A program made the translations under genes and the position numbers. This document shows positions 17,043-64,000 of a DNA stretch of 64,000 bases, in pieces (the first letter of the stretch is position 1; the number at the start of each line of letters is the position of its first letter). Source of the stretch: Anaerolineales bacterium (GTDB lineage: Bacteria > Chloroflexota > Anaerolineae > Anaerolineales > Villigracilaceae); the NCBI GenBank assembly GCA_035463495.1, contig DATHTH010000137.1, positions 418-64,417 of the forward strand. The letters are read 5' to 3'. The notes beneath the pieces were generated by a model. That model saw only the letters and a program-made list of their open reading frames with translations, searched no databases and was not told where the DNA came from.

Positions 17043-17086
17043 TAGGGAGAATCCCCATTCAAGCTTTGGATATTTAAATGTAAAGT
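17043..17086 (+). promoter_or_regulatory. Motif B promoter (TAGGG-AGAATC-CCCAT, 22 nt, TAAAGT)
   Basis: Box 17043-17058; -10 at 17081-17086. Confidence 0.65.
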
Positions 17087-17092
17087 GTCGGT

Positions 17093-17254
17093 ATGAGAAC
17101 ATTCGACATGTTTTGGAGAGGCTCGGTGTTTGTCATTCTTGCTTTCCTCACGTGGAACAGCTTTGTGGCTGGCGGTCTAATGGCAGGATTGCTGTTACTC
17201 TCCTGTATCCCCGTCTGGTTGTTTATCGGATTGTATCACCAGGGCTATTTCTGA
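17093..17254 (+). CDS. Small 53-aa two-TM protein, probably leaderless (missed by track)
   Basis: MRTFDMFWRGSVFVILAFLTWNSFVAGGLMAGLLLLSCIPVWLFIGLYHQGYF*. Only 6 nt separate the -10 box from the ATG and there is no SD. Confidence 0.55.
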   Translation: MRTFDMFWRGSVFVILAFLTWNSFVAGGLMAGLLLLSCIPVWLFIGLYHQGYF

Positions 17255-17337
17255 TCTACCAGAAGTAAAATGATATTCCTGACACGGGGATTTTTTTATT
17301 TAAGAAAGAGGAAGTGGGAAAGAGAAATTAAATAAAA

Positions 17338-17375
17338 TGCTCCGTCAGAGTGAGGGGGGCACCCTGAGCGGAGCA
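17338..17375 (+). terminator. Possible intrinsic terminator after the small ORF
   Basis: TGCTCCG-TCAG...CTGA-G-CGGAGCA stem followed by CCCTTATTTT. Confidence 0.4.
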
Positions 17376-17523
17376 CCCTTATTTTACACAGAATCCTGGT
17401 TTTGGCAAGGGTATTGGGGATAAATCAGCAGATTTATTTTTCTCTAAGCGCCTACCACTAATTCACAGGTCCATAAGTCTAAGAAACCCGCTTCATTGCA
17501 GATAAATTCCAGCATTCTAAGGG

Positions 17524-17567
17524 TAGGGAATCCCCCCATGTGCATATCATTTTGGGGAAATGAAAAT
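17524..17567 (+). promoter_or_regulatory. Motif B site upstream of kinase island (weak -10 GAAAAT)
   Basis: TAGGG-AATCCC-CCCAT 17524-17539, 22 nt, GAAAAT. Confidence 0.5.
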
Positions 17568-17666
17568 GCTTCTATGAGCCAGTCTGGCTTTTCTTTTCTG
17601 TAGATTTGCTACTCGAGTTTATATGGTAGATTCCTCCTGATATTAGACATTGAGGCACTTCCAAAC

Positions 17667-20600
17667 ATGAACGACCACCCGTTCTTTCGTCCCCTGAATA
17701 GATCCAACTGGGGAGCACTCCAGATCGCCGGCTTTTATCTCCTGATGGGAGGGCTATGGATTCTGTTTTCGGATCAGGCAGCGGCCCGGATTGCCTCGAA
17801 TGAGCAGATGCTGGCGACAATCAGCCTGTATAAAGGATGGGCGTACGTGGTTGTCACTGCCCTCATCCTCTACTGGCTGGTACAGCGTCATACTCTCGCG
17901 CTGCAAGCAAGCGAAAAACATTTGCACCGAGTCCTGGATGCCATGCCGGTCTTCATCTCCTATGTCGGCGCCGACCGGCGTTATCAGTTCACCAACAAGA
18001 CGTATAAGGAATGGTTTGGCGCGAAGCCGGAGGGGAAGCACATCGAGGAAGTTTTGGGCAAGGCGGGCTATGGGATTGTTTCCGGACATATAGACAAAGT
18101 ACTTGCCGGCGAGACCGTGAGCTATGAAACGGAGATGCCCATTCACGGCCGTGACCATTTTCTTTACGTCCGGTATATTCCAGATCTTCAGCGAGACGGG
18201 CAGGTCAAAGGCTTCTTTGTTCTGGCGCTGGATCGGACCGATCAAAAAATTGCGGAGGAGGAGCGCCGGTTATGGGCGGACGCATTCGAGGGCTGTGCGC
18301 ACGGCATCGCCATCGACGACCCTCACTCCAACCGGATTGTCGTTTGCAACCCAGCGTTTGCAGGTCTGCATAGAAGTCGGGTCGAGGATATCGTCGGTTC
18401 ACCGATCCTGAGCCTCTACGCCCCACCAGATCATGAGCATCTGCGGCGCAGCATCCAAAAAGCAGACCAGATCGGTCATTCCCGGTTCGAGGCGAGGATG
18501 ATCCGCAAGGATGGTTCCACGTTTCCCGTTCAAATGGATCTGGTCAGCGTGCTCGGTGAAGCTGGGGAGTTGCTGTACCGTGTGGCGACCGCCCAGGATA
18601 TCTCGGAGCGACTGGCGGCGGAAAAGGTTTTGCAGGAATCCGAGGCGCGCTATCGCATCGTGTCAGAACTGACCAGCGACTATGCCTACAGCGACCGGGT
18701 GGAGCCGGATGGCAGCATCATCCCGGAATGGTTTACGGATTCCTTCACAAGGATTACGGGTTACACGCTAGAGGAAACAAAATCTGGTGACTTCTGGCAA
18801 AAGCTGATACACCCGGACGATGGTCCCATTCTCATGCGCCATATACAGAAGATCCTATCGGGCCAGCCTGATTCCGAGGAAATGCGCGTGCTGACAAAGA
18901 ATGGGGAAGTACGCTGGCTGCGCGATTTTGCTAACCCGGTGTGGGATGAGGCGGAAGAGCGAATCACGAGCTTATACGGCGCAGTGCAGGATATTACCGA
19001 ATCCAAACGCGCTCAGGAACAAATCCTGCATCAGGCGCGCTTGCTGGCGCAGATAGACGATGCCGTCATCGCCTCCGACGAAAATTTTGTGCTGACCTCC
19101 TGGAACCCCGCCGCCGAGCGCATCTATGGCTGGAAGGCGGAGGAAGTAATCGGCAGGAGAGGCGATGAAATTCTCCGCACAGAACTGCCACGAAAACCTC
19201 GTGCCGAAATGATACGTGAGTTAAGGGAGCGTGGTGAATTCTCCGCAGAAGTCATCCAATCCCGGAAAGATGGCTCCAGAGCGCAGATCGAGGCCCGCAC
19301 CGTGGCGTTGCACGATGAACACGGAAATCTGACCGGCTACGTGAGTGTCAACCGGGATATCACGGACCGGAAGCAGGCAGAGCAGGAAAAAATCAGCCTG
19401 GCGCGCTTTCCCGAAGAAAACCCCAACCCGGTGCTGCGCGCCACCCATGAAGGTAAGATAATCTATGCCAATGCCGCCAGCCAGCCACTATTAGCAGGCT
19501 GGCACACGCGAGTTGGAGAGTTCCTTCCGACTGATTGGCTCCCCCTTATCCATGAACTGATCCGGACAGGGTCAAGCAGGACAATTGATATTCGGTCTGG
19601 TGAAACAACGTACTCAATGATGATGGTGTACGCTCCGGATGCCAACGATGTCAATATCTATGGCCGGGACATCACGGAACGCAAGCGGGCAGAGGAGAAT
19701 CTGCGCCGCTTCCAGCTTCTTTCGGAGAACAGCCGGGATGTGATCCTGTTTATCAACCGTATAGATGGTCGCATCATGGAAGCCAATGCAGCGGCTGTCC
19801 GAGCCTATGGTTACAGCCGGGACGAATTGCTGGCGCTCTCCATCACAGATCTGCGCGCCGATGCCACTCTGAAGCTAACTCTGGAGCAAATGGCTCAGGC
19901 AGACACGGGAGGCATTCTCTTTGAGACCATACACCGGCGCAAAGACGGTTCGACGTTTCCTGTCGAGGTCAGCTCGCAGGGCGCGACGATCGGAGACAAC
20001 CGCACCCTGATCAGCATCATCCGTGACATTACCGAGCGAAAGCAAGCTGAAGCTGACCTTCGTCTCATAGACCAGCTTTTGCAGCTGACTAGCAAGATGG
20101 CAAAAGTGGGCGGCTGGGAATTCAACCCCAAGACCGGGGAGGGGACCTGGACAGACGAAGTCGCCAGAATACATGACCTTGACCCTGCACAGCAAACCGA
20201 CCTGCAACTTGGTCTGAGCTTTTATTCGGGCGAATCCCGTGAACGGGTGGAGCAGGCTGTCAGGGAAGCGATCGAGCTTGCCAAGCCGTATGACCTCGAG
20301 CTGGAAATGGTCACGACAAACGGCACTCGAAAATGGGTAAGAACGATGGGATTGCCTCTTACCCAGGATGGCAAAGTAATCAAGGTCCAGGGCATCTTCC
20401 AGGATATCACGGAGCGCAAACAGGCAGAGCACGAGATCCGTCGCCTGAATGAGGAACTGGAACAACGCGTCGTGGAACGCACCGAGCAATTACAGGCTGC
20501 CAACAAGGAGCTGGAGGCGTTTTCCTACTCCGTATCGCACGATCTTCGCGCCCCGTTGCGCGCCATCGACGGCTATACTCGCATCCTGGTGGAGGATTAC

Positions 20601-21188
20601 GAGCAGATCCTCGACGCGGAAGGCAAACGCATCTGCAACGTGATCAGTACCGAAGCGCGCCGTATGGGACAGTTGATCGATGACTTGCTTGCCTTTTCGC
20701 GCTTGGGCCGCAAGGAAATGTTCCGGTCCAGGATCGATATGAAGGCGTTGGCAGAATCTGTGTTCGCCGAGCTGCTCAAAGAGCAGGATGCGGGGCGCAT
20801 CGACTTCCAAATCGCAAAGTTGCCTACCACGAGGGGGGATCTTGCCCTCCTCCAACAGGTCTGGGTGAACCTGCTTGCCAACGCGATCAAGTTCACATCG
20901 AAGAAAGAGCGGGCGGTCATCGAGGTGGGATGCAAACAAAGCAAAGATGAGAATATCTATTATGTGCGCGATAATGGCGCCGGTTTCGATATGGAATATG
21001 CAAATAAACTATTTGGCGTCTTTCAGCGCTTACATAGCGAAAGTGAGTTCGAAGGGACCGGCGTCGGGCTTGCCATCGTCCAACGGATCATCGGCCGGCA
21101 CAGCGGGCGGGCCTGGGCGGAAGGAGAAGTGGAAAAAGGCGCAACCTTTTACTTCGCCCTTCCCAGGAAAGAGAATCCTCATGAATGA
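17667..21188 (+). CDS. Membrane-anchored multi-PAS (about 7) sensor histidine kinase
   Basis: 2 N-terminal TMs; repeated PAC endings (DITERK-like); H-box [13 protein letters not shown]; NLLANAIKF, DNGAGF and GTGVGL motifs. Confidence 0.95.
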   Translation: MNDHPFFRPLNRSNWGALQIAGFYLLMGGLWILFSDQAAARIASNEQMLATISLYKGWAYVVVTALILYWLVQRHTLALQASEKHLHRVLDAMPVFISYVGADRRYQFTNKTYKEWFGAKPEGKHIEEVLGKAGYGIVSGHIDKVLAGETVSYETEMPIHGRDHFLYVRYIPDLQRDGQVKGFFVLALDRTDQKIAEEERRLWADAFEGCAHGIAIDDPHSNRIVVCNPAFAGLHRSRVEDIVGSPILSLYAPPDHEHLRRSIQKADQIGHSRFEARMIRKDGSTFPVQMDLVSVLGEAGELLYRVATAQDISERLAAEKVLQESEARYRIVSELTSDYAYSDRVEPDGSIIPEWFTDSFTRITGYTLEETKSGDFWQKLIHPDDGPILMRHIQKILSGQPDSEEMRVLTKNGEVRWLRDFANPVWDEAEERITSLYGAVQDITESKRAQEQILHQARLLAQIDDAVIASDENFVLTSWNPAAERIYGWKAEEVIGRRGDEILRTELPRKPRAEMIRELRERGEFSAEVIQSRKDGSRAQIEARTVALHDEHGNLTGYVSVNRDITDRKQAEQEKISLARFPEENPNPVLRATHEGKIIYANAASQPLLAGWHTRVGEFLPTDWLPLIHELIRTGSSRTIDIRSGETTYSMMMVYAPDANDVNIYGRDITERKRAEENLRRFQLLSENSRDVILFINRIDGRIMEANAAAVRAYGYSRDELLALSITDLRADATLKLTLEQMAQADTGGILFETIHRRKDGSTFPVEVSSQGATIGDNRTLISIIRDITERKQAEADLRLIDQLLQLTSKMAKVGGWEFNPKTGEGTWTDEVARIHDLDPAQQTDLQLGLSFYSGESRERVEQAVREAIELAKPYDLELEMVTTNGTRKWVRTMGLPLTQDGKVIKVQGIFQDITERKQAEHEIRRLNEELEQRVVERTEQLQAANKELEAFSYSVSHDLRAPLRAIDGYTRILVEDYEQILDAEGKRICNVISTEARRMGQLIDDLLAFSRLGRKEMFRSRIDMKALAESVFAELLKEQDAGRIDFQIAKLPTTRGDLALLQQVWVNLLANAIKFTSKKERAVIEVGCKQSKDENIYYVRDNGAGFDMEYANKLFGVFQRLHSESEFEGTGVGLAIVQRIIGRHSGRAWAEGEVEKGATFYFALPRKENPHE

Positions 21189-21624
21189 TCACCATGTTGT
21201 CGAGGTTCTGCTCGTCGAGGACAACCCGCGGGATGCAGAGCTCACGATTCGCGCCTTGAAAAGACATAACCTTGCCAACCGGCTCGTGCATGTGAAGGAT
21301 GGCGCCGAGGCTTTGGACTTTCTGTTTGGCAGCGGCCCCTATGAGGGCCGCTCAATCGATACGTCACCACGGGTCGTCCTGCTTGATCTTAAGCTGCCCA
21401 AAGTCAATGGATTGGAAGTGCTGCGCCGAATGAAAGAGGATCGGCACCTGCGCAGCATCCCTGTTGTCATCGTCACTTCCTCGGCGGAAGACCCGGATAT
21501 GGAAGCGGCATACCAGCTGGGCGCCAACAGCTACGTGGTCAAACCGGTGCAATTCGATCAATTTATGGAAGCTATGAGCAAGCTGGGAGTTTACTGGTTG
21601 ATGCTTAATCATCCTTTGAAATAA
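21181..21624 (+). CDS. Single-domain response regulator (Rcp1-like)
   Basis: MNDHHVVEVLLVEDNP..LLDLKLP..GANSYVVKP; overlaps the kinase stop via ATGAATGA. Confidence 0.93.
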   Translation: MNDHHVVEVLLVEDNPRDAELTIRALKRHNLANRLVHVKDGAEALDFLFGSGPYEGRSIDTSPRVVLLDLKLPKVNGLEVLRRMKEDRHLRSIPVVIVTSSAEDPDMEAAYQLGANSYVVKPVQFDQFMEAMSKLGVYWLMLNHPLK

Positions 21625-21688
21625 GCAAAACAATGTAAGCCTCTTTTCAATATACCGGCCACAACCATCGCCGAAGAGGAAAGCACGT

Positions 21689-24600
21689 ATGAAGAATCCC
21701 ACTCGAATTTTGATCGCGGAGCATCTGGAAGCCGACGCCAATCTGGCGAAGCATATGATCCGCAAGGTCCTGAAACATTGTGAATTTCAGGTTGTGGAGA
21801 GCCGCAGGGAATTTCTGACCGCTGTGAAAACGCTCCAGCCGCATATAGTCCTGGCGGACAATGACTTACCTCATCTCAATGGCATGCAGGCGCTCAAGTT
21901 AGCTCGCAAGCACGCGCCGCTAGCCCCGTTCATCGTCTGGACGCGTTCCGTGGACGAAGAGTTGGCAGCCGCGTGCGTCAGAGCTGGTGCGGGGCATTGC
22001 CTGCTAAAGGCGAACGGTCAGGAGCTGGAACCCATTGTGCGACAGGCAATCAAGGAAAGACAGTTACTGCTGGAAAGAGACAGGGCAGAAGAGCGCTACC
22101 GGGCGATCTTTGAAAATTCTCCGGAGGGCATCTTCCAGTCCTCGCCGGAAGGGCGGTATCTGAACGTCAACCCCGCGATGGCAACGATATATGGATATAC
22201 ATCGCCGCGCGACATGCTCGAGTCTGTCACTGATATTGCCAGCCAGATTTACATCGATCCGGGGGAACGCGCCCACCTGATCGAAATGCTCGCGAAGCAT
22301 GGCACAGTGGAGAATTATGAACAGAAAAACCGTCGTAAGGATGGCAGCCTGATCTGGACGGACACAACCATGCGAGCCGTACGCGATGAGCATGGTGACC
22401 TCCTGTACATTGAAGGTTTTGTAAGAGACATCACTGCCCGCAAGAAGATGGAGGAACAGCTCCGGCAGGGTGAAGCCAGGTACCGCACACTGGTGGAACA
22501 ACTGCCTGTCATTACGTATATTTCTCAGCTGGACCAGTATATGGGGGTTTCATATATCAGTCCTCAGATCGAAACCCTCGGCTTCGACTCAGAGCAATGG
22601 CTCGCCGATCCAGAGTTGTGGTTCAGGCAGATCCACCCCGAAGATAAAGAACGTGTGGCATCCGCGCTGGAACAGTTCCGTGCGGGTGGCGAGGAATTTC
22701 GGACGGAGTACAGATTGGTTTTACCGAATGGGGAAACAAGATGGTTTGATGACCGCTCGGTCTATGTCCGAGATCAGAGCGGGCAGCCCATTTTTAAGCA
22801 GGGATTCATGGTCGATATCACGGAGCGTAAGCAGGCGGAGGCGGTGCTTCAGCGCAGTGAGTCGCGTTTTCGGGCGCTGATCGAAAACGGACTGGACGAT
22901 ATCTCGCTCCTCGCCGCCGATGGAACCCTGCTATGGGAGAGTCCATCCACGGTCCGCAACCTGGGATATCAACCGAATGAATACGTGGGGCGCAATATTT
23001 TCGAGATGATGCATCCCCACGACCTTCGCTGGACCTCCGAGCTGTACACAGAGCTGATCCGGGAGCCTGGCAGCCGCAAACAGGGCACCTTCCGGCTACG
23101 GCGTGTGGATGGCGCCTGGCGCTGGATGGAAGCGATCGTGACCAATATGTTGAACCAGCCGGGGATCGAGGCGATCATTGTCAACTATCGTGATGTTACG
23201 GAACGGAAGCAAGCTGAGGAGGCCCTGCGCCAGAGCCAGGCCCGTTATCAAAGTCTGGTCGAGACCTCCCACGATCTGATCTGGTCTATTGATCTGGACG
23301 GGAATTTTACTTTCTTGAACCATGCGGCTACAGAAATCCTCGGATATGAGCCAGAAAAACTGTTGGGGCGCTCCTTCCTGGAGCTTATTGATTCGGAACA
23401 CCATGGACCTCCGGATCTGCAACAGTACAGGGCTGTCCTGGAATCCCCGGAAGAATTCCAGGCTGACGAAACGTATGTACGGCACTCCGATGGCAGGCAG
23501 ATCGTTCTTAGCACAAAGTATGCCGTCATTCGGGATGCAGAGCGCAACATTATCGGGATCAGTGGAACCTCACACGATATCACTGCGCGCAAACAGGCGG
23601 AGGACGCACTAAAGGCAGAACGCAACTTGCTGCGGACGTTGATCGACAATCTGCCGGACCGCATCTATGCAATGGATACCCTGGGCCGCAAGATCCTGTC
23701 GAACACAGCAGACTGGCAGGCAGCCGGCGGCAAGTCGATGCAGGATGTGATCGGCAAGACGGATTTTGATGCCTACCCACCCGAACTTGCCGGGCAGTTC
23801 TGGGAACTGGACCAGGCCGTTATCAAGGCAGGAAATCCGGTCATCAACCACGAAGAGCCAGGATTGGATGCCGAAGGCAATCTCGTTTCAATCCTCACAA
23901 CCAAGATTCCGCTGCGGGATGAAAAGGGGCAGATCAACGGGCTGGTGGGCATCGGCCGGGATATCACCGAGCGCAAGCTTGCAGAAGCCCGTATTAACGA
24001 ACTCCTGGAGTTCAACGCGAAGATCTTGAATCATTCACCGCTTGGCATCCTCACGTATAAGCTGACGGGAGAATGCATCTTTGCCAACGAAAATGCGGCT
24101 GCGATCCTGGGGGCTTCTGTTGAGCAGCTTCAGGAACAGAACTTTCACTCGATTGAAGCCTGGAAGAAGTCGGGCTTATATGATCTGGTAATGCGCGCCA
24201 TCGATACGTCTTTGCCTGTCACAGCCGATATTCAGCAGAAGACTTTCGATAAAGAGGTGTGGTTAACCGTCCACTGTGTAACCTTCTACTCCGGAGGTGA
24301 ATCTCACCTACTGCTCACGCTTGCGGACATCACCGACCAAAAGCTGACAGAGGCAAGATTGCGTCAAAGCGAAAGTCGCTATCGCCTGGCGATCAGGGCT
24401 ACCAATGATGTGATCTGGGAGTGGGACCCGAAGAGCAATCGATTGTCCTGGAGCCAGAATGCGCCAATTGTATTCGGATATGAGACAGACGAAATCGCTC
24501 CTTATGCTACGTGGTGGGATGAGCGCCTTCATCCCGATGACTGCAGGCGTGTGGTCGACAAGCTGAGCAACCTGGTTGCGGGGGACGCGTCAATCTGGAG

Positions 24601-36509: not shown

Positions 36510-36521
36510 CAAGGAGAATGA

Positions 36522-52839: not shown

Positions 52840-52883
52840 TAGGTACATCCTGAATTGATGATAGATAGCGTGATGGATATAGT
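52840..52883 (+). promoter_or_regulatory. Motif B divergent promoter of LLM operon
   Basis: TAGGT-ACATCC-TGAAT 52840-52855, 22 nt, TATAGT 52878-52883. Confidence 0.6.
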
Positions 52884-54155: not shown

Positions 54156-54157
54156 CC

Positions 54158-55090: not shown

Positions 55091-55096
55091 CCCAGA

Positions 55097-55624
55097 ATGG
55101 AAATCGATCTTAATGAATTACTCTGGACCGCCCTGCGCGCTACCTTTGTGTATCTATTCCTGCTAGTCATCGTGCGCCTTCTCGGCAAACGCGAGATCGG
55201 GTCCACGAGTGCGTTCGATCTCGTCGTGGCGTTGATCCTGGGCGAAGTAGTGGACGAAATTATCTATGGCGATGTCACGGTTCTGCAGGGGGTGGTTGCC
55301 ATCGTGGTCGTCGCTGCCTGGCATGTGGCGAATTCCTGGGCAAGCTTCAAGAGTGAGTTCATCGATAAGCTAACCGGCGCCCCGCCCACGGTGGTAGTGA
55401 AGAACGGCCAGATCCAGCGCAAGAATCTCGCGAAGGAAAGGCTCAATGAAAGCGAGCTATTCTCCGAGCTGCGGCTGATGGGCGTGGAAGATGTTAAAGA
55501 GGTCAAACAAGCCACGCTGGAGCCGAATGGCCAGATCAGCGTCATCCAGGAAGAATGGGCAAAGCCCGTTCAGCGCCAGGACATCCTCGATGTGAAGCCC
55601 AGGAACAGCAGAAAGAAATCCTAG
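55097..55624 (+). CDS. DUF421 (YetF-like) membrane protein
   Basis: RLLGKREIGSTSAFDLVV and A.LEPNGQISVI motifs. Confidence 0.9.
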   Translation: MEIDLNELLWTALRATFVYLFLLVIVRLLGKREIGSTSAFDLVVALILGEVVDEIIYGDVTVLQGVVAIVVVAAWHVANSWASFKSEFIDKLTGAPPTVVVKNGQIQRKNLAKERLNESELFSELRLMGVEDVKEVKQATLEPNGQISVIQEEWAKPVQRQDILDVKPRNSRKKS

Positions 55625-55628
55625 CCTC

Positions 55629-56126
55629 ATGGAAGAGCTTGATCTCACCGGGATTGTCCTGCGCGTATCGGTGATGTACCTGTTTGCCCTGGCGCTCGTC
55701 CGGATTGCAGGAAAACAGGCAATCGGACAGCTAACCGGCATGGATTTTGTCGTTACCCTGATTGTAGGCGACCTGTTTGACGATATCTTCTGGGCGACCG
55801 TGCCCCTCGCGCAAGGGATGGTGGCGTTCGCGATTGTGGTGTTCTCTCATATTCTTGTCACTTTCCTGAGCTCTCGTAATCTACGCTTTTATCGTCTGGC
55901 GACACCTCCGGCGAGGCTGCTGATCGAAGACGGAAAGCTGATGCAGAAGAGTCTTCAGCAGGAGCGGATGCGGCCGGATCATCTCCAAGCCGACCTGCGC
56001 ATCGCCGGAGAGGAGCATCCCAGTGAGATCAAGCAAGCCTGGCTCGAGCCAAGCGGCCAGGTCAGCGTGATCAAGAATTCCGACAGCAGACCCATCAGGA
56101 AAAAGGACAAGCGTCTGTTTGGCTAG
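55629..56126 (+). CDS. DUF421 (YetF-like) membrane protein, paralog
   Basis: RIAGKQAIGQLTGMDFVV and AWLEPSGQVSVI motifs. Confidence 0.9.
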   Translation: MEELDLTGIVLRVSVMYLFALALVRIAGKQAIGQLTGMDFVVTLIVGDLFDDIFWATVPLAQGMVAFAIVVFSHILVTFLSSRNLRFYRLATPPARLLIEDGKLMQKSLQQERMRPDHLQADLRIAGEEHPSEIKQAWLEPSGQVSVIKNSDSRPIRKKDKRLFG

Positions 56127-56190
56127 GGAAAGCCCTACTGGTGTGACAGCACCATCCCCCATTGTTCATTCACCGCCCCAAATTTAGAAT
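56124..56190 (+). promoter_or_regulatory. Motif B promoter of yciF-SDR
   Basis: Distal TAGGG-AAAG-CCCTA 56124-56137; proximal site ends in CCCAT at 56162, then 22 nt and TAGAAT 56185-56190. Confidence 0.68.
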
Positions 56191-56246: not shown

Positions 56247-56741
56247 ATGGCTTCGAAAATGCAAACGCTGGAAGATTTGTATACCGATTTGCTGAAGGAT
56301 CTGTACAGTGCAGAAAAGCAGCTGGTCAAGGCGTTGCCCAAGATGGCAAAGAACGCCGGCTCGGCGGATCTGCAGAAAGCGTTTCAGGAGCACCTGAAAC
56401 AGACCGAACGACAGGCCGAGCGGATCGAGCGCATCTTTACCGAGATGGGCGGTTCCCCACGCGGCAAGAAGTGTGTCGGCATGGAAGGCTTGATCGAAGA
56501 AGGCAATGAGATCCTGAAAGAAGATGCCGAACCACAGGTCCTGGATGCCGGTTTGATCGCCGCAGCTCAGAAGGTGGAGCACTATGAGATCGCCGGCTAC
56601 GGCACGGCGCGCGCCTGGGCTGAGCGCCTGGGTTATGACAAAGCCGCCCGACTGCTGCAGGAAACCCTGGATGAGGAATCCATGGCGAATGAAAAGCTGA
56701 CCCAGATCGCTGAGAGCCACGTGAACATGGAGGCGCAGTAG
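56247..56741 (+). CDS. yciF: Ferritin-like YciF/DUF892 stress protein
   Basis: LKDLYSAEKQL..LPKMA, MEGLIEEG and AAAQKVEHYEIAGYG motifs. Confidence 0.93.
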   Translation: MASKMQTLEDLYTDLLKDLYSAEKQLVKALPKMAKNAGSADLQKAFQEHLKQTERQAERIERIFTEMGGSPRGKKCVGMEGLIEEGNEILKEDAEPQVLDAGLIAAAQKVEHYEIAGYGTARAWAERLGYDKAARLLQETLDEESMANEKLTQIAESHVNMEAQ

Positions 56742-56749
56742 TAAGCAGC

Positions 56750-57505
56750 ATGCCACTATTTGATGGCAAAGTTGCACTTGTGACAGGCGGCGGCTCGGGG
56801 ATCGGGCAGGCTGCCTGTCATTTATATGCGCGCGAAGGGGCGAAAGTGGTTGTCTCTGATATTGACGAGAAGGGCGGTGCAGAGGTTGTACGTACCATCC
56901 AGGACATGGCAGGAGAAGCCACCTTCATTAGGGCTGATATATCCCGTCCGGAGGATTGCCAGGCGATGGTCCAGGCGGCGTTGGACAGATTCGGCCGCCT
57001 GGATATCGCATTTAATAACGCAGGGATCGGCGGTGAGGCGAACCTGACCGCCGATTACAGTGTTGAAGGCTGGCAAAAGGTTATAGATATTAACCTGTCT
57101 GGAGTGTTCTATTGTACGAAATACGAAGTCCCGGCCATGCTGCAATCCGCGGGCGGCGCTATTGTCAACATGGCTTCCGTGCTGGGACAGGCTGCCTTCG
57201 CCCAATCGCCGGCCTATGTGGCAGCAAAACATGGAGTAGTGGGGCTGACGAAGACGACCGCCGTAGAGTATGGGAATCAGGGGATCCGCGTGAATGCCGT
57301 CGGGCCCGGCTTCATCCGCACGCCGTTGATTTCTAATCTGGAGGAAGATCAGCAGATTCGCGACTATCTCGTCTCCCTTCACCCGATGGGGCGCCTTGGA
57401 GAATCGGAAGAAGTGGCAGAGCTGGTAATCTGGCTAAGCTCGGACAAGGCTTCTTTCGTCAATGGGGCGTATTATGCGGTGGATGGCGGGTACCTGGCGC
57501 GTTGA
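56750..57505 (+). CDS. Short-chain dehydrogenase/reductase
   Basis: TGGGSGIG, NNAG and YVAAK motifs. Confidence 0.95.
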   Translation: MPLFDGKVALVTGGGSGIGQAACHLYAREGAKVVVSDIDEKGGAEVVRTIQDMAGEATFIRADISRPEDCQAMVQAALDRFGRLDIAFNNAGIGGEANLTADYSVEGWQKVIDINLSGVFYCTKYEVPAMLQSAGGAIVNMASVLGQAAFAQSPAYVAAKHGVVGLTKTTAVEYGNQGIRVNAVGPGFIRTPLISNLEEDQQIRDYLVSLHPMGRLGESEEVAELVIWLSSDKASFVNGAYYAVDGGYLAR

Positions 57506-57556
57506 TACTCTTCCGTAAAATATCAGCGCTTGATAGTAAAGGACGGAGCGAGACTC

Positions 57557-58159
57557 ATGAATGATCATATCGGTGGTTTGTTCCAAACACAGGAAAGTGC
57601 AAACCTGGCCTACGAATCCCTCCATAAAGCAGGTTTCCTCACGGAAAAGATTCATATGTTCGTGCATAGACCGCCCCGGGAGGTTGCCCGTTCCATGGAG
57701 GTTCCTATTCAGGAGATTGCAAGGGTCGCTTTCACTGGCGCGCTGATTCTAGGCGCGATCGGCGGCTTTATCGGCTGGCTTGTGGGGAACGGTACTCTTT
57801 CTCTTCCATATCTTGAACCCGGTTCCGCACCGCGTGATCCGCTCTTCGTGTTTATGTCCGTGGTATGGGGGTTGATCACAGGTGGTCTGACCGGGGCGAT
57901 TCTAGGTGTGGCATCCAGGCTGCTCCGCTCGAAAGAAAAAGCCGAGGTGATGACCACTGCGATCGAAAAGCGCGGTGTACTGATCACCGTAGACCTGGAT
58001 GGTGGGCATCCCGAGAGTAGCGCCCGACGGCTGATGGAAGAACACGGTGCGGTGGAGATAGGAAACCCATTTGAGAAGTGGGATCCCGATGCCTGGTGGA
58101 GTCCAAACAGTCCGAATGGGAATCAGGTCTCGCTGAGAAGTCTGAAGGAGATACGCTGA
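57557..58159 (+). CDS. General-stress-type membrane protein (glycine-zipper TM hairpin in a ferredoxin-like split domain)
   Basis: IGGLF...A..AYESL..AGF; GALILGAIGG..GG glycine zipper; GVLITV. Confidence 0.6.
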   Translation: MNDHIGGLFQTQESANLAYESLHKAGFLTEKIHMFVHRPPREVARSMEVPIQEIARVAFTGALILGAIGGFIGWLVGNGTLSLPYLEPGSAPRDPLFVFMSVVWGLITGGLTGAILGVASRLLRSKEKAEVMTTAIEKRGVLITVDLDGGHPESSARRLMEEHGAVEIGNPFEKWDPDAWWSPNSPNGNQVSLRSLKEIR

Positions 58160-58356
58160 GATCAGACGGATGCTCAATTGAGCATTCGTTTTTATTTGTA
58201 CGTGGAATGGGGTCAAGGCTATCTTTACATGCAGAATACAAACGTCCCTTTTTGGAAAAGTATAAAAGAATAATCGCCCCCTTCCTCAGCAAACGCTTAG
58301 ACCGGACGCGAGTGCCTCTTCATAACCGGATGAACTTCGAATCGTTAAAATTCAAT

Positions 58357-58422
58357 AAGGGAAATCCCTATGACCCCTGTAGTTACTTCCCTGTTATAGG
58401 GAAGCCACGCGAATGATATAGT
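58357..58422 (+). promoter_or_regulatory. Motif B promoter of ABC operon
   Basis: Distal AAGGG-AAAT-CCCTA 58357-58370, 46 nt upstream of extended -10 TGaTATAGT (58414-58422); proximal site degenerate. Confidence 0.55.
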
Positions 58423-58538
58423 TACCGCGCGGGTAATAAACAAACGCCACAGGTGCGCATCAAATGTACGCGACGGCGGCATCAATCTTAACTTCGCCGC
58501 TTTCGCCGCCAGAGAAACTTTCGCAAAGACAGGAAAAA

Positions 58539-59522
58539 ATGAATACACCACAAGATAAACAAACGACCTCGTATGTAGTTGAAGCACAGGAGCTCACCAA
58601 AACGTTTGGCAGTGAAGTAGCTGTTAATAATCTCAGTATGCGCGTCCCACGCGGGTCGATTTTTGGTTTTATTGGTCCCAGTGGCTGTGGAAAAACCACC
58701 ACGGTGCGTCTGCTCACCGGCGTGCATTCACCGACCTCCGGTCAGGTCAGGGTGCTTGGCAAGGATCCGGTGCAGTTTACGAAATCAGACCGGGAACGGA
58801 TCGGCTATCTCATTCAGAACTTTGTGCTGTACCCGGAGCTCACGGTTTGGGAAAACTTGAATTTTGCCGGGTCCTTTTATGGCGTCTCTCTGATGGGCAG
58901 ATCCCGCCGGCTGAATCATCTACTGGAGTTTGTTGAGCTAACGGAAGATAGGAACAAGCGTGCCAGTGCGCTCTCAGGCGGGATGAAGAGACGCCTCAGC
59001 CTGGCAGCCACCATGGTGCATAACCCGGAGCTGCTGTTCCTGGATGAGCCCACTGCAGGTATTGATCCCATTCTCCGGCGCAAATTCTGGGATTATTTTA
59101 AAGAGCTGCAGAAGGAAGGCGATACGCTGTTCATTACCACCCAGTATGTAGGCGAAGCGGCATACTGCGATCTGGTAGGCGTGATGTATGACGGCAACCT
59201 GTTGATGGTGGAAACCCCCGAGAGCCTGCGCAAAAAAGCCTTCGGGGGCGAGATCGTCAGCATCAAAACGTCGGAATGGATCCGATATGAAGACCGGAAG
59301 AAGCTGGAAAACCTACCTTTCGTGCAGGGCAAGATCAAGGTCATCAACGATTCCGAAATCGAGGTCATCGTGGATGAAGCCAGCACAGCTATGCCGGCAT
59401 TGATCGAAGCCAGTAGGGCTGCCCGGATCAACATCGAGACCATCGAAGAGATCATCCCGCCTTACGACGATGTATTTGTCCGCATCATCGAAATGGAGAC
59501 CGCCAATGTCGAGACTGTTTAA
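58539..59522 (+). CDS. ABC transporter ATP-binding protein
   Basis: GPSGCGKTT, LSGGMKRR, LFLDEP and TTQ motifs. Confidence 0.95.
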   Translation: MNTPQDKQTTSYVVEAQELTKTFGSEVAVNNLSMRVPRGSIFGFIGPSGCGKTTTVRLLTGVHSPTSGQVRVLGKDPVQFTKSDRERIGYLIQNFVLYPELTVWENLNFAGSFYGVSLMGRSRRLNHLLEFVELTEDRNKRASALSGGMKRRLSLAATMVHNPELLFLDEPTAGIDPILRRKFWDYFKELQKEGDTLFITTQYVGEAAYCDLVGVMYDGNLLMVETPESLRKKAFGGEIVSIKTSEWIRYEDRKKLENLPFVQGKIKVINDSEIEVIVDEASTAMPALIEASRAARINIETIEEIIPPYDDVFVRIIEMETANVETV

Positions 59523-60825
59523 ATTCCTGATCCGCATCTCATCCTTCGTCAGCAAGGAATTGACAGAAATCCTGCGCCAGCCGAGGCTGGTGCTGACCCT
59601 GGTATTCGGTCCGTTTTTGATCATGTTCCTGTTCGGTCTCGCCTATCCCGAACAAAACCGTACCTTGAGAACCACTTTTGTCACTGAGGACCCCGGTTCT
59701 CTCGAAGGGGATATGCAATTATTCACCGGCACGGTCAGCCCGGTGATCGATAATCAGGGTGTGGAAAACAATCGAGAGCTGGCGCTGGCAAAATTAGCTC
59801 TCAATCAGACGGATCTCGTGATCGTTATCCCCGAGAGCCCCTTTGAGACGGTTCAAAGCAACCAACAGGCGCAGTTCACAATCTACCATAATGAAGTGGA
59901 CCCCTTCCAGATTGCCTATATTCAATCGGCTGCCAGAATTTATGTGGATGAAGTCAACCGGAGTCTCCTGCAGGAGGTCACCGAGCAGGGGCAGGCGGAT
60001 GCCGGGGATGTGCAGGCTAGCCTGCAAAATGCGCTCGCCAGGACCCAGGCGATCAAGAGCGTGCTTCCTCCGGGAGATCCGAATGAGGCTGAGATCAACG
60101 AGCTGGAGTCCGATCTCACAACTGCGGATGAGCAATTGACCACCTTCCGGTCGGTAAGCGCGCCTGTGCTTGTCAATCCCTTCGCGGCGGAGACCACATC
60201 TCTTTCGAATATTATCTTTACGCCCACGGAGTTCTTTGCTCCGGCAGTGATCGTCCTGCTTCTGCAGCACTTATCCATCACGTTTGCCTCGCTATCCATC
60301 GTACGCGAGCGCCGCTCGGGTATTGTCGAGCTGTTTCGGGTGTCCCCCATCAGCGCCTTCGAAACACTGATCGGAAAGTATCTAAGTTATCTGATCCTCG
60401 AGATTCTGCTCGCCGGTGTGATCACTGTCCTGGCAGTCTGGCTTTTGAGGGTGCCCATGTTTGGAGACTGGATCAATTATGCTGCGGCTGTGATCGTCCT
60501 GCTCTTTACTGCTCTGGGTGTTGGCTTCCTGATCTCCCTGATATCTGAGACGGACACCCAGGCTGTCCAGTATTCGATGCTGCTGCTCCTGGGGAGCATC
60601 TTCTTCAGCGGGTTTTTCCTGGACCTGCGTCTGATCTGGGAGCCCATGAAAGCTGTAGCCTGGTCTCTGCCGGCGACGTACGGGATCCGCATGCTGCAAG
60701 ATATTATGCTGCGCGGAGCCGAGGCGCCGACCATTCTCCTGTATGGCCTGGCGCTGATCGGGATCGGTCTCTTTATTCTGGACTGGCTGATTTTGCGGCG
60801 CCGGATGGATGGTCAGGAGTCCTGA
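59506..60825 (+). CDS. ABC-2 type permease with extracellular helical insert
   Basis: KELTEILRQPR, RERRSGIVELF and FFSGFF..LPATYG motifs. Confidence 0.88.
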   Translation: MSRLFKFLIRISSFVSKELTEILRQPRLVLTLVFGPFLIMFLFGLAYPEQNRTLRTTFVTEDPGSLEGDMQLFTGTVSPVIDNQGVENNRELALAKLALNQTDLVIVIPESPFETVQSNQQAQFTIYHNEVDPFQIAYIQSAARIYVDEVNRSLLQEVTEQGQADAGDVQASLQNALARTQAIKSVLPPGDPNEAEINELESDLTTADEQLTTFRSVSAPVLVNPFAAETTSLSNIIFTPTEFFAPAVIVLLLQHLSITFASLSIVRERRSGIVELFRVSPISAFETLIGKYLSYLILEILLAGVITVLAVWLLRVPMFGDWINYAAAVIVLLFTALGVGFLISLISETDTQAVQYSMLLLLGSIFFSGFFLDLRLIWEPMKAVAWSLPATYGIRMLQDIMLRGAEAPTILLYGLALIGIGLFILDWLILRRRMDGQES

Positions 60826-61985
60826 AAATAATCAGAGGTCCTGCTGACCAGGGCATGGAGCCGGTCTGCCAGCCTGAGGCTTTCGCGGTGGCGAGACCTT
60901 TGCAGACGCCTTTTCAATTCGAAAAGGCGTTTTCCTATCTCGGCGACCTGGCTGGACACTTCGCTGGAGAAGGCCGGTGTTGCAAAGGAATAAAGATGCT
61001 GGAAGGAGATCTGGAAAGCCACCGCCAGAGGCGGCGCCAGCACCACGCCAATAAAGCCGAATGCATCTGCCAGCGCTACTACAAACAGAATGACCAGCAG
61101 CGAGCTATATTTGTAGCGGGGAAAGAACCGAGGCTCGATGACCAGTGAAAGCGTGAGCAAAATGCCGACAGTATAGATTGTGGCCAGAACTCCGAGGGTC
61201 GAGGAAATCCCGATCCCAATGACCAGTGCCGGAATCACCGCAATTAAAGCTCCGAACCACGGGATCAACCGGACAATAGCCCCAAACAACGCCAATAAGA
61301 TTGGATACCGGATACCCAGCACAGAATATCCCAGCCACAGGAGCAATCCTGCCATGACGCTCTGGACAAGCTCGCTTCGTAAGTACTCCCCCACACCCGT
61401 CTCCATCGATCTCCAAACATGCAAAGCCTTCGGATGGTGCTCGTCCGGGATCAGCGAAAGAGCCAGCCGTTCGAACCGGAACTGGTCGGCGCTCCAGTAC
61501 AGGCTCAGGACGAGCACAATCGCAATCTGACCCAGGATCGAGAAAAAGTTCTGCGCCATGGTCACGACTCCCGTCAGCACCGGGACCCCGCTGTTACTTG
61601 TCAACGCCTGATAGAAGTCGGCGGAGGGAGGCAATTGTTCCGCCAGAGTTTGCTGGAAGAGACTTCCACTCTCAGGCCACTGTGCCTTCGCGCGATCGTA
61701 GCCTAACACAAAATCATCGGTTGCCCGTTGCAGTTCGTCGAGCAAAGGCGGGCCAACCATCCAGATGGAGCTGGCAAGGGCAGCCACCAGCAAGAAATAG
61801 ACAAATCCCAGCGCCAGTCGTTTGGGAACCTTCCTTCCGGTAATCGTGCTGATGAGGGGACGCAGCGAGGCAGCCACTGCCAGCGACAGGAAAAACAAAA
61901 GGATTGCAATACTGAACTGCCAGAGCAGGAGCAGAACAATCAGGGTTATGACAACAACAATGGTATACCGGACAATCCGGATCAT
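60813..61985 (-). CDS. AI-2E family transporter
   Basis: LFFLSLAVAASLRP, RLIPWFG and GFIGVVLAPP patterns. Confidence 0.85.
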   Translation of the reverse strand: MIRIVRYTIVVVITLIVLLLLWQFSIAILLFFLSLAVAASLRPLISTITGRKVPKRLALGFVYFLLVAALASSIWMVGPPLLDELQRATDDFVLGYDRAKAQWPESGSLFQQTLAEQLPPSADFYQALTSNSGVPVLTGVVTMAQNFFSILGQIAIVLVLSLYWSADQFRFERLALSLIPDEHHPKALHVWRSMETGVGEYLRSELVQSVMAGLLLWLGYSVLGIRYPILLALFGAIVRLIPWFGALIAVIPALVIGIGISSTLGVLATIYTVGILLTLSLVIEPRFFPRYKYSSLLVILFVVALADAFGFIGVVLAPPLAVAFQISFQHLYSFATPAFSSEVSSQVAEIGKRLFELKRRLQRSRHRESLRLADRLHALVSRTSDYFQDS

Positions 61986-63256
61986 ATGGTTTCACCCTCT
62001 TTTTTCATCTGGCTCAGCACCTGGTTTAGCTCTTCTGCCAGATTATAAATTTCCAGCCGATCTTCTTCTGGTAGGTCGCGAAATGCCGGGTTCTTGTTGG
62101 AAGTCTCATAGATGGTCTGCATCAATGTCTGACTCTCGTTGATCAGCGTTTGAATCTGGACTTCCCGGTTCTGCACCTGTTTGGCTGACTCGGCGGCCGT
62201 CAGGACCGCCCGACTCACCATGAGCTGAATAATGGCGGCGAGCGGCAAGGCCAGCAGCGCGCCCGCAAAGCCAAACACGGAGCTGAATGCGATCAACGAC
62301 AGAAGCACAACAATTGGATTCACCCCCATCGAGCTTTTCATAATCCGTGGCACCAGGACGGCATTTTCCAGCAATTGGATGACAATGGTGGCTACGACCA
62401 CCCAGACTGCCTTCCCCGGATCTACAGAGAGAGCTACCAGAAGTGCGGGGATCGCTCCCAGCGCAGGACCAAATATCGGCACGAGCTCCATCACCCCGGC
62501 AAAGACAGCTAACACCAGTGTGTAAGGAAGACCAATGAGAGCATAAGCGATAAAGGCTGCCAGCCCGACGGCAACGCAAAGGAGCCCCTGTCCTCGCACA
62601 TATCCCCCGATCTTTGACTCAGCGAGCTGTACAAATTCCCGTATGCGTTTTCGGCGCTGTTGAGGGAAGACGCGCAGCATGGCTCGCATGATAAGATTGC
62701 CCTCCTGCGTCCAATAGTAAGCAAGCAGAAAAACAGCGAGGACAGCTAAAAGCCCCCTCATGACGATATTGGTATAAAAGATAGCCTGGGTGACCTGGGT
62801 AATCACCTCGTCTTCTTCTTCACTGCTGGCAAACCTGGTCCCGAGCAGAGATAGTTGGGAAGGGAAACGCCAGCCAATATTTTGCAGCAGGCGATTACTA
62901 GAATTGATCAACCCGCTTCGCAGTTCCGTGTAGTATTCCGGTAAAGTGCGGGAGATCTCCGTGGCTTGTTCGGCAAGCAGCGGCAGGATCATTGCCAGGA
63001 AGCCTACCAGCAGACCTGCAATCAGCAGATAAATAATGATGATCCCCAGTGACCGTGGGATCCCGCGCCGGTGCAGCCACTCAACGCCGGGACGAATCGC
63101 CGTCCCGATGAGAACTGCAATGAAGAAAAGAAAAAGAACAACCCGCAGGCTATACAACAGCCAGAACGTTAAAAACACGCAGACCACGAAGACAGTTGCA
63201 AGAACAACTTGACTTGTGGTCCACGTTGCTACTCCTTCAGAAGGAGAGGATTTCAT
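61982..63256 (-). CDS. AI-2E family transporter
   Basis: ELVPIFGPALGAIP, QLLENAVLVPRIM and GFAGALLALP motifs. Confidence 0.92.
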   Translation of the reverse strand: MKSSPSEGVATWTTSQVVLATVFVVCVFLTFWLLYSLRVVLFLFFIAVLIGTAIRPGVEWLHRRGIPRSLGIIIIYLLIAGLLVGFLAMILPLLAEQATEISRTLPEYYTELRSGLINSSNRLLQNIGWRFPSQLSLLGTRFASSEEEDEVITQVTQAIFYTNIVMRGLLAVLAVFLLAYYWTQEGNLIMRAMLRVFPQQRRKRIREFVQLAESKIGGYVRGQGLLCVAVGLAAFIAYALIGLPYTLVLAVFAGVMELVPIFGPALGAIPALLVALSVDPGKAVWVVVATIVIQLLENAVLVPRIMKSSMGVNPIVVLLSLIAFSSVFGFAGALLALPLAAIIQLMVSRAVLTAAESAKQVQNREVQIQTLINESQTLMQTIYETSNKNPAFRDLPEEDRLEIYNLAEELNQVLSQMKKEGETI

Positions 63257-63615
63257 GGTTCCAGGCGAATCACCGTCCCGGTTGAATCCACACGATACCG
63301 ATATTCCTGGTTATCGATGCTAAAGGTCAGTAACCAACCGGGAGTAATCACTTCTGCGCACACTTCATCGCCTTCCGGCAGACCCAGGCAACTATTCGGC
63401 CAGTCCATCTTTGCCACATCCTGAATTTGAATGCTCTCGAGCGGCACAGCCAGGGTTTCGCTGATCTGGTTTTGAACGTTCAGAGCAACATCTGGGGGTA
63501 AGACGTCCTCCATCGCCGGATCTACCTGGGTAGCCACCGCATTGGGCTGGTTGGCACTGCAGGCGCCAAGAACCAGCGCAGCGCCCAGCAGTGCCACGAT
63601 CCACTGTCTATTCAT
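63253..63615 (-). CDS. Small hypothetical lipoprotein
   Basis: Lipobox LGAC; W.NSCLG.P....CA.VITPGW motif with a likely disulfide. Confidence 0.75.
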   Translation of the reverse strand: MNRQWIVALLGAALVLGACSANQPNAVATQVDPAMEDVLPPDVALNVQNQISETLAVPLESIQIQDVAKMDWPNSCLGLPEGDEVCAEVITPGWLLTFSIDNQEYRYRVDSTGTVIRLEP

Positions 63616-63618
63616 TAA

Positions 63619-63771
63619 TTAGAACCAGCCGAACAGCAATCCAAGGATAACCAGAAGTAACAGAAGACCGACGATCCCGCTGCCGCCATAGCCCCAGCTC
63701 CGGCTGTGAGGCCAGACAGGCAACGCACCCAGAAGCAACAAAACCAGAATGATAATAAGAATGGTACTCAT
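63619..63771 (-). CDS. DUF3309 family small membrane protein (missed by track)
   Basis: MSTILIIILVLLLLGALPVWPHSRSWGYGGSGIVGLLLLLVILGLLFGWF*; AAGGAG RBS. Confidence 0.88.
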   Translation of the reverse strand: MSTILIIILVLLLLGALPVWPHSRSWGYGGSGIVGLLLLLVILGLLFGWF

Positions 63772-63807
63772 CTGCTTTCTCCTTTTTGTAAGATAATTAT
63801 TTTAGCA

Positions 63808-63834
63808 CCCGAGGGGAGAAAATCTCCCCTCGGG
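63808..63834. terminator. 12-bp perfect hairpin between csbD and DUF3309
   Basis: CCCGAGGGGAGA-aaa-TCTCCCCTCGGG; no strong U-tract, so it may be a stabilising stem or binding site. Confidence 0.45.
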
Positions 63835-63864
63835 CAGACGATTCTGAGGGCTACAGCTCGTCAA

Positions 63865-63999
63865 TTACATCCGGCGATTCACATCCTCATCCCAATGGCT
63901 GAGGAAGTCGTCGATCTCGCGCTCGGCTTCAAGCTCTGTATAACCATAGCGCTCCTGAAGCTTCCCGGCAAGCTTATCGCGCTTTCCGGAGATCTGCTC
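63865..63999 (-). CDS. csbD: CsbD/YjbJ stress protein, C-terminal part (5' end outside window)
   Basis: EQISGKRDKLAGKLQERYGYTELEAEREIDDF. Confidence 0.88.
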   Translation of the reverse strand, partial: EQISGKRDKLAGKLQERYGYTELEAEREIDDFLSHWDEDVNRRM

Positions 64000-64000
64000 G

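Follow-up and report, generated by a model that had tools for sequence, protein, structure and literature searches.

The stretch of DNA considered here, 64,000 nucleotides of contig DATHTH010000137.1 (assembly GCA_035463495.1, positions 418 to 64,417 of the forward strand; hereafter the window), comes from an Anaerolineales bacterium of the Chloroflexota; its closest named relatives are Anaerolineales metagenome-assembled genomes, and the sequence occurs in soil metagenomes. Within it lie an operon of PAS/GAF histidine kinases and response regulators, a cluster of genes of general-stress type, and seven promoters at which an operator-like element, motif B, is found. A first-pass annotation of the sequence had proposed that motif B serves a general-stress regulon spanning both groups of genes. 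The element has two forms, a 14-bp palindrome TAGGG-N4-CCCTA and a 16-bp asymmetric box TAGGnA-N3-TCCCCAT, and the promoter-proximal half of the box, (T)CCCCAT, is its best-conserved part. The seven promoters (P1 to P7) and the candidate regulator, an atypical response regulator (aRR) containing a receiver (REC) domain and a helix-turn-helix (HTH) domain, are as follows.

P1, operator 17007-17058, plus strand: half-sites CCCTA at 17007-17011 and 17028-17032 and the 16-bp box TAGGGAGAATCCCCAT at 17043-17058; -10 TAAAGT at 17081-17086; downstream, an open reading frame (ORF) for a 53-aa membrane protein at 17093-17254.
P2, 17524-17567, plus strand: box TAGGGAATCCCCCCAT at 17524-17539, 22 nt, -10 GAAAAT at 17562-17567; the unit is the kinase operon.
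P3, 51438-51453, minus strand: box TAGGTATATTCCCCAT, its last base overlapped by the -35 TTGTGA; -10 TATAGT at 51415-51410; the unit is the PRC-barrel gene (51380-51009).
P4, 52745-52810, minus strand: palindrome TAGGGCATTCCCTA at 52810-52797, 8 nt, box TAGGAATTTTCCCCAT at 52788-52773, 22 nt, -10 TATAGT at 52750-52745; the unit is ytxH plus the regulator gene.
P5, 52819-52883, plus strand: half-sites CCCTA (52819-52823) and CCTA, box TAGGTACATCCTGAAT at 52840-52855, -35 TTGATG, -10 TATAGT at 52878-52883; the unit, reached through a 290-nt leader, is a luciferase-like monooxygenase, BrkB and two YetF genes (53169-56126).
P6, 56124-56190, plus strand: palindrome TAGGGAAAGCCCTA at 56124-56137, proximal element ..CCATCCCCCAT (from 56147, ending at 56162), -35 TTGTTC, -10 TAGAAT at 56185-56190; the unit is DUF892/YciF, SDR and an ActD-like gene (56247-58159).
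P7, 58357-58422, plus strand: palindrome AAGGGAAATCCCTA at 58357-58370, an inner everted repeat TTCCCT-N5-AGGGAA at 58387-58403 that reaches into the -35/-10 spacer, -10 TATAGT at 58417-58422 inside GATATAGTTA; the unit is the ABC-2 transporter (58464-60825).
Candidate regulator aRR, 51585-52244, minus strand: NarL/FixJ-type protein with REC domain and GerE HTH.

Terminator-like hairpins at 17275-17291 (after the 53-aa ORF), at 51543-51526 on the minus strand (after the regulator gene) and at 58164-58191 (after the ActD-like gene) mark these out as seven transcription units, each with the motif ahead of it.

The pattern is real and is not a product of chance. Counts and shuffle expectations refer to the 64-kb window, of which 8.6% is intergenic and 91% coding. 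TAGGN7CCCAT has four matches (17043 and 17524 on the plus strand, 51438 and 52773 on the minus strand) where 0.29 are expected, a number reached in 0 of 100 shuffles; TAGGGN4CCCTA has two (52797 and 56124) against an expectation of 0.05, with a near-copy, AAGGGAAATCCCTA, one mismatch away at 58357; and GATATAGTTA is matched exactly three times (51408 on the minus strand, 52876 and 58415 on the plus strand) against 0.01 expected. Every copy of the box, the palindrome and GATATAGTTA is intergenic, none falls in the coding 91%, and TAGGG half-sites crowd into the same few spacers. By hand count on the raw sequence, the six boxes at 17043, 17524, 51438(-), 52773(-), 52840 and 56147 each end exactly 22 nt before a hexamer TAnnnT or GAAAAT, and the distance from palindrome to -10 is 46 nt at 52797 (measured to the minus-strand -10 of ytxH), 47 nt at 56124 and 46 nt at 58357. 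The three regularities set out in the first-pass annotation, namely boxes 22 nt from a -10 at these six positions, distal palindromes 46-47 nt away and a -10 sequence common to three promoters, are thus confirmed, and the two boxes that it had called degenerate are genuine as well: among the loci retrieved for comparison, which carry L numbers, TAGGTACATCCTGAAT at 52840 is invariant in L161 and L163, and ..CCATCCCCCAT at 56147 in L001, L161 and L163. A weight matrix trained solely on the boxes of other loci gives the four window boxes 20-27.6 bits, the maximum over 20 shuffles being 18.5. The register is just as strict outside the window: the window and 14 other loci together give 27 distinct boxes, each followed after 22 nt by a hexamer whose second base is A and whose sixth is T, and in every palindrome-bearing locus one orientation of the palindrome is followed by ..CCCCAT after 18-19 nt and by TAnnnT after 45-47 nt (46-47 in most).

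Among the scans that gave comparison loci, the first used DUF892, which proved too widely conserved and returned mostly other phyla; those loci became a 1.2-Mb negative control, and the same scan yielded the syntenic locus L001. In another, metagenome contigs were scanned for relatives of the 51585-52244 product, with seed peptides that included the recognition helix VKNHVHNI, which gave a set of 80 loci totalling 372 kb, with regulator homologues at 36-65% identity. The motif is kept upstream of orthologues at all seven promoters: boxes, spacings and -10 elements are retained and the flanking spacer DNA diverges. P1 and P2 are found in L165 (87%), L166 (64%) and L167 (61%), with the P1 arrangement CCCTA-N10-TAGGGAGAATCCCCAT in L165 and L166, and the P2 box in L165 and L167 and as a CCCCTT variant in L166. 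P3 to P7 are retained in L161, where the regulator is 82% identical, and in L163/L164 (77%); P3 and P4 recur in L082, L085 and L088 besides L161 and L163, the P5 box is letter-for-letter identical in L161 and L163, and about 85 nt of P6 are conserved in L001, L161, L163 and L082. The gene order ytxH-aRR-PRC is kept in L161-L164, L082 and L085. In L001, whose DUF892 protein is 77% identical, the DUF892 gene is preceded by TAGGGAAAGCCCTA...CCATCCCCCATTGTTCATTCACCG...TAGAAT and the ABC gene by TAGGGAAATCCCTA...CATCCCCAAT...GATATAGTTA. The proximal position of P7 is occupied by CATCCCCAAT in L001 and L163 and by the everted repeat, instead of a CCCCAT-type element, in the window and L161, so that a single orthologous promoter has undergone turnover of its proximal element.

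A simple sigma-70 scan passes only P3 (TTGTGA) and P5 (TTGATG), each with a 17-nt spacer and TATAGT, and the -35 hexamers of P1, P2, P4, P6 and P7 are poor. The SigB/EcfG consensus (GGAAC-N15-18-CGTT, GTTT-N13-17-GGGWAW) occurs in the window at chance level and solely inside genes. Assuming a start 7 nt past the -10, the box would cover -50 to -35, with its centre at -42.5, and the palindrome would be centred at -65.5 or -66.5. The earlier proposal of an activator box abutting the -35 of housekeeping-type promoters fits the rigid 22 nt in 27 of 27 boxes, the weak -35 elements and the lack of a SigB/EcfG consensus. Motif B is read as the operator of a putative activator because its fixed distance from a good housekeeping -10, the weakness of the -35 and the presence of another site two turns farther upstream together match the architecture of NarL-family activators.

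Several features of individual promoters deserve record. The 53-aa ORF behind P1 encodes a two-helix membrane protein without a Pfam or NCBIfam family, and its ATG lies 7 nt past the -10, so a leaderless mRNA is predicted; the ORF and its spacing from the -10 are kept in L165 (5410-5590), L166 (5341-5514) and a third contig. P2 has the same spacing from -10 to ATG/GTG, but the short ORF there is not conserved. Between P2 and the kinase gene, TATGGTAGATT (17615-17631, plus strand) contains an extended -10-like TGnTAGATT 36 nt before the start codon; the sequence recurs in L165 and L166 and might act as another promoter of the operon, one that does not depend on the motif. The P5 leader contains a long hairpin, GTTCGAGTGGCGC ... 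GCGCCACTCGAAC (53016-53078, plus strand), extended by TTGATG/CATTAA, whose outer stem is conserved and whose loop is variable in L161 (~9150-9230) and L163 (~9040-9110); in L163 it sits between a DUF1328 gene and the monooxygenase gene. No T-run follows the stem and the hairpin has no Rfam match, an Rfam search of the whole window having returned zero matches.

The receiver domain of the regulator (PF00072, E=5.9e-13) and HTH (PF00196, E=7.9e-17) are both recognized, and full-length alignments to the structures of VraR, NarL, DesR and DevR reach E values of 1e-18 to 1e-22; in NCBIfam no equivalog reaches its cut-off, and there is no DevR equivalog match. In the alignment Ser56 stands where VraR and NarL have their phospho-acceptor Asp, the Asp-Asp of the acidic pocket is replaced by Ile10-Glu11, Gly takes the place of the conserved Thr/Ser, and Lys107 is retained. 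Homologues have S, N, A, G or T at the phospho-acceptor site. By its sequence, aRR is a pseudo-receiver protein, a receiver fold without the phosphotransfer residues, as atypical response regulators have been defined (PMC12632262).

The motif co-occurs with the genes of these homologues. All 19 strict boxes in the 372 kb lie on the regulator's strand, the palindrome is present in 12 of the loci, mostly 100-400 nt upstream of the homologue, and a strict co-oriented motif occurs within 700 nt upstream of 14 of the 45 Asp-less homologues whose loci extend far enough upstream, vs none of 15 that contain the Asp. The motif's frequency is uneven, with 17 co-oriented matches in the 28 kb upstream of the homologues, where about 0.14 are expected, vs 12 matches to the relaxed motif in the 1.2-Mb control, scattered and with GC-rich spacers (0.5 per 100 kb per strand). 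General abundance of the motif and loss of it upstream of orthologues, two outcomes that the first-pass annotation had named as refuting, were thus both looked for and neither was observed, and the interpretation given there is supported to the extent that sequence comparison allows. The full architecture of palindrome, ..CCCCAT, 22 nt and TAnnnT precedes the homologue in at least 12 metagenomic lineages, Caldilineaceae included, and holds at only about 40% identity (L107, L116, L117, L125, L127, L134 and L140). Across 20 kb of the Caldilineaceae-type loci L170 and L171, the promoter of the regulator gene is the one place with CCCCAT-N22-TAnnnT. A test for enriched hexamers ahead of the homologues was uninformative, AT-rich -10 words dominating. 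As an aside, an IS605-family TnpB gene (OrfB_IS605, Cas12f-like TNB; 14699-15355 of L171) is inserted beside the BrkB gene of that Caldilineae-type stress locus.

We consider it somewhat better than an even bet (a probability of roughly 0.55) that a lineage-specific regulon of Anaerolineae-class Chloroflexota has motif B as its operator and aRR as the most likely binder, an autoregulated activator working with the housekeeping sigma factor. The sequences show enrichment and fixed spacing of the motif, its conservation at orthologous promoters, its co-occurrence with the regulator family and the loss of the Asp; binder identity, activation, sigma usage, stress induction and the signal input of aRR are what we infer. 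The protein would bind next to the weak -35 and recruit housekeeping-sigma RNA polymerase in the manner of class II LuxR/NarL-type activators. It would activate ytxH and its own gene through P4, a positive autoregulation suggested by the palindrome and box ahead of the ytxH-regulator operon. The other proposed targets are the PRC-barrel gene; the luciferase-like monooxygenase, BrkB and YetF genes; DUF892/YciF, SDR and the ActD-like gene; the ABC-2 exporter; the 53-aa membrane protein; the multi-PAS kinase operon, in which a canonical NarL-type response regulator is encoded as well; and, in orthologues, a GlsB-ChaB-CsbD-DUF3309-AI-2E operon. Having no Asp, aRR might be governed by how strongly it is itself expressed, or might receive its signal by pairing with the canonical REC/NarL proteins that recur beside it. 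The label 'general stress' is suggested by the families to which these genes belong.

A number of observations weigh against this reading of aRR and motif B. Only about a third of the Asp-less homologues show the strict motif upstream, and a paralogous subgroup (L084-L098) lacks it and has a different repeated word instead. The motif frequencies cover the 64-kb window and the fetched loci rather than a whole genome, and orthologous instances are non-independent, amounting to roughly 10-12 independent promoter lineages. Fragments of the locus in one metatranscriptome and several unlabelled runs are short, low-depth contigs of relatives with unreadable 5' ends. A comparison of recognition helices as a way of picking the binder was rejected, and invariance of that helix carries no weight, because VKNHVHNI was among the seeds of the scan. 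The spacing between half-sites is 2 bp wider in the box than in the palindrome, which would be unusual for a single rigid homodimer. Finally, genes for canonical NarL-type response regulators and REC-only proteins often adjoin the regulator gene, and their products could be the binder or a co-binder.

Repeated GGATACA, GTATAC and GGATATA words are spaced in steps of about 10 bp, 150-250 nt upstream of the homologue, in L084-L098, L103, L106, L107, L133 and L141; the proteins of the subgroup with GGATACA-type words and without the TAGGG motif are Asp-less, with the pocket N-E and the sequence 'VSTRLPD', and these words may constitute a second, different operator.

Among the alternatives, the one that survives best would assign the two site types to two regulators, a NarL-family homodimer on the palindrome and, on the box, a heterodimer or a different protein, including the canonical response regulator encoded at 31296-31949 or a REC-only partner. 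On this model the Asp-less regulator would be under kinase control by way of a phosphorylated partner, as in BldM/WhiI. The box shares its 5' half with the palindrome (TAGGG/TAGGnA) and differs from it in the 3' half, where it has the better-conserved word TCCCCAT; because of this different 3' half and the 2-bp shift in spacing, one rigid homodimer accepting both sites is not what would be expected. BldM provides a precedent, its homodimer binding a palindrome and the BldM-WhiI heterodimer a 16-bp non-palindromic site with one common half-site (PMC4125116), and integration of this kind has been proposed in a review of pseudo-receivers (PMC12632262). Gene order is also suggestive: a HisKA_3 histidine kinase, a NarL-type response regulator, a REC-only protein and aRR follow one another in L127, L129, L135 and L146, the pair of REC-only protein and aRR is found in L115, L118, L122 and L124, in L135 and L146 the REC-only and aRR genes have boxes ahead of them, and the P2 box would drive an operon encoding a REC-HisKA_3 kinase and a canonical response regulator. 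In the window's own lineage, however, the regulator is paired with ytxH and not with a REC gene, and in several contigs, all of them short (L107, L116, L134 and L140), the regulator gene has the motif ahead of it and no NarL gene is visible. On balance the division of labour between two regulators seems to us doubtful, if worth keeping in mind.

Motif B might instead be a repressor operator, a protein at -50 to -35 blocking RNA polymerase until stress removes it, and the overlap of the box with the upstream edge of the -35 region, the acceptable sigma-70-type hexamers of P3 and P5 and the extra TAGGGAA within the P7 spacer of the window and L161 would all suit such a role. Yet the exact 22-nt register in 27 of 27 boxes is a need of activators that touch polymerase and not of repressors, five of the seven promoters (P1, P2, P4, P6 and P7) have poor -35 elements, and another site at about -66 is where one would look for a cooperative activator of the NarL family; we consider repression unlikely. 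Still less credible is that TCCCCAT and TAnnnT form the two parts of an alternative-sigma promoter, with no transcription-factor site at all. The strong conservation of (T)CCCCAT and its fixed distance from the -10 would be explained, but the 22-nt gap exceeds any known spacer of the sigma-70 family, palindromes upstream of a promoter are what dimeric HTH proteins typically bind, the -10 elements (TATAGT, TAGAAT) look like housekeeping ones, the window clusters contain no sigma or anti-sigma gene, and SigB/EcfG motifs stand at chance level in coding DNA only. That these are chance matches or a dispersed repeat of no regulatory role, as might be suspected of short patterns originally defined by eye, is in effect already refuted by the shuffle controls, the intergenic-only location, the out-of-sample weight matrix, the conservation of orthologous position and register and the near-absence of the motif from the 1.2 Mb of control loci.

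The genes that the proposed regulon of aRR would connect, together with their neighbours, are assigned as follows, by Pfam except in the last two lines.

17667-33071, plus strand: sensor operon downstream of P2, PAS/GAF histidine kinases and response regulators, with the six genes next listed.
17667-21188, plus strand: multi-PAS histidine kinase.
About 21181-21624, plus strand: REC-only protein.
21689-30160, plus strand: giant PAS/GAF hybrid histidine kinase.
30157-31206, plus strand: REC-HisKA_3 histidine kinase.
31296-31949, plus strand: canonical NarL-type response regulator.
32034-33071, plus strand: REC-HD (HD_5) protein.
41333-42304, plus strand: tandem USP.
42308-50839, plus strand: GH94 cyclic beta-1,2-glucan-synthase-like protein, 2843 aa.
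51009-51380, minus strand: PRC-barrel protein.
52370-52621, minus strand: ytxH, first gene of the P4 ytxH-aRR operon.
53169-56126, plus strand: luciferase-like monooxygenase, BrkB/YihY and two YetF.
56247-58159, plus strand: DUF892 (YciF family), SDR and ActD-like.
58464-60825, plus strand: ABC-2 transporter.
60813-63256, minus strand: two AI-2E transporters.
60813-64000, minus strand: tail of a further stress operon, with CsbD, DUF3309, a 120-aa lipoprotein-like ORF and the two AI-2E transporters.
64000-63866 and 63771-63619, minus strand: truncated CsbD and DUF3309, at the window end.

The suggestion that kinase island and stress cluster form one integrated locus is supported by the P1 and P2 boxes kept in L165-L167, where the order of the sensor-operon genes is also the same, and by L146, in which one uninterrupted row of genes encodes a HisKA_3 kinase, a NarL-type response regulator, a REC-only protein, the regulator, USP and the glucan synthase. 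The USP and glucan-synthase pair is syntenic with the stress cluster in L161, L146, L082, L083 and L085. Counting against membership of all of these genes in one aRR regulon, the weight-matrix scan found no motif upstream of the USP and glucan-synthase genes; it likewise found none inside the kinase island. A reading of 42308-50839 as a further kinase was rejected in favour of the GH94 assignment. CsbD had been listed in the first-pass annotation among the box-driven stress genes; this stands for ytxH and DUF892/YciF, which have motif promoters, whereas CsbD is present in the window as a truncated gene at its end, and the promoter of its operon lies beyond the end of the contig. Extension past that point was barred, both DUF3309-carrying contigs stopping inside CsbD, and the sole usable orthologue is L085, where a box at 468, 22 nt and TATAGT stand ahead of a CsbD-type operon. 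That operon has four extra upstream ORFs, which by eye resemble GlsB/YmgE, a membrane protein, ChaB and CsbD, followed by DUF3309, the 120-aa ORF and two AI-2E genes.

A gene for a GGDEF protein (diguanylate cyclase) is found just upstream of the 53-aa ORF and kinase operon in L166 (4404-5273) and L167 (3425-4294), and this neighbour, with the REC-HD protein of the window, hints at an involvement of cyclic di-GMP (c-di-GMP). The VpsT-like c-di-GMP motif W[FLM][TS]R was sought in the regulator and on inspection is absent.

A broader and more tentative proposal, which we hold at less than even odds, is that the general stress response of the Anaerolineae is run not by an alternative sigma factor but by a phosphorylation-blind NarL-type pseudo-receiver reading a code of palindrome at about -66 and box at -42.5, with kinase input arriving through a canonical REC/NarL partner on the box and the kinase operon, as a target, closing a feedback loop. 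Anaerolineae and Caldilineae are abundant, mostly uncultured bacteria of soil and sludge, and full-text literature searches found no stress regulon, operator or regulator described for either. The analysis provides a precise promoter code, a named candidate regulator and a list of targets overlapping the SigB/RpoS/EcfG regulons; if borne out, it would mean that one set of protective genes can be connected to switches of different types, and it offers a natural example for studying how pseudo-receiver response regulators are themselves controlled. The motif can also be used for annotating stress regulons in metagenome-assembled genomes.

Comparison with known systems is instructive at the level of the sites, the genes and the circuit. 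NarL and RcsB-type proteins are canonical phosphorylated response regulators. The 16-bp box can be read, on the NarL 7-2-7 pattern, as two inverted heptamers 2 bp apart with TA at their outer ends, and the 14-bp palindrome has a 5-N4-5 arrangement resembling that of the RcsB box; the core bases differ, GGG/CCC being opposite in orientation to TACCCCT. With the SigB, RpoS and EcfG regulons the window and its orthologues share gene families, namely CsbD, YtxH, YciF/DUF892, PRC-barrel, USP, GlsB/YmgE and DUF3309-type small membrane proteins, csbD and ytxH being members of the SigB regulon. Unlike genes of SigB/EcfG regulons, those described here have no such promoter consensus ahead of them and appear to be under transcription-factor control on housekeeping-type promoters. 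The likeness to BldM/WhiI, at the level of sequence, lies in an orphan atypical NarL-family response regulator and in a palindrome accompanied by a 16-bp non-palindromic site with a common half-site; those proteins, by contrast, control development, their motif sequences are unrelated, and a heterodimer is for the present system hypothetical.

The closest known system is the DosR/DevR regulon. Both have a NarL/LuxR-type HTH regulator; autoregulation, use of the housekeeping sigma factor, control of stress or dormancy genes and PAS/GAF kinases in the circuit are features of DosR/DevR that are proposed for aRR too, and the sites described here would likewise stand in tandem, the proximal one over a weak -35. 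DevR sites lie at -42.5 and -63.5 of tgs1, where the tandem, in-phase arrangement is required (PMC3177182), and at hspX a DosR box centred at -43.5 adjoins a suboptimal -35, DosR contacting sigma region 4 and alpha (PMC13486717); the sites described here would be at about -42.5 and -66, given a start 7 nt past the predicted -10. The differences are equally plain. DevR is phosphorylated on Asp54 by DosS/DosT-type kinases, whereas aRR has Ser at that site; the Dev box, compared here by its published description, is of 18-20 bp with an essential G5 and C7 in each half-site (PMC3177182), whereas the sites of motif B are of 14 and 16 bp, TAGGG..CCCTA and TAGGnA..TCCCCAT; the centre-to-centre distance is 23-24 bp instead of 21; and phylum and gene set differ. 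The system of the window is not a member of the DosR/DevR regulon, because it has no phospho-Asp and a different motif, and is best described as a NarL-family pseudo-receiver regulator with a putative two-part operator on a general-stress-type gene set in the Chloroflexota.

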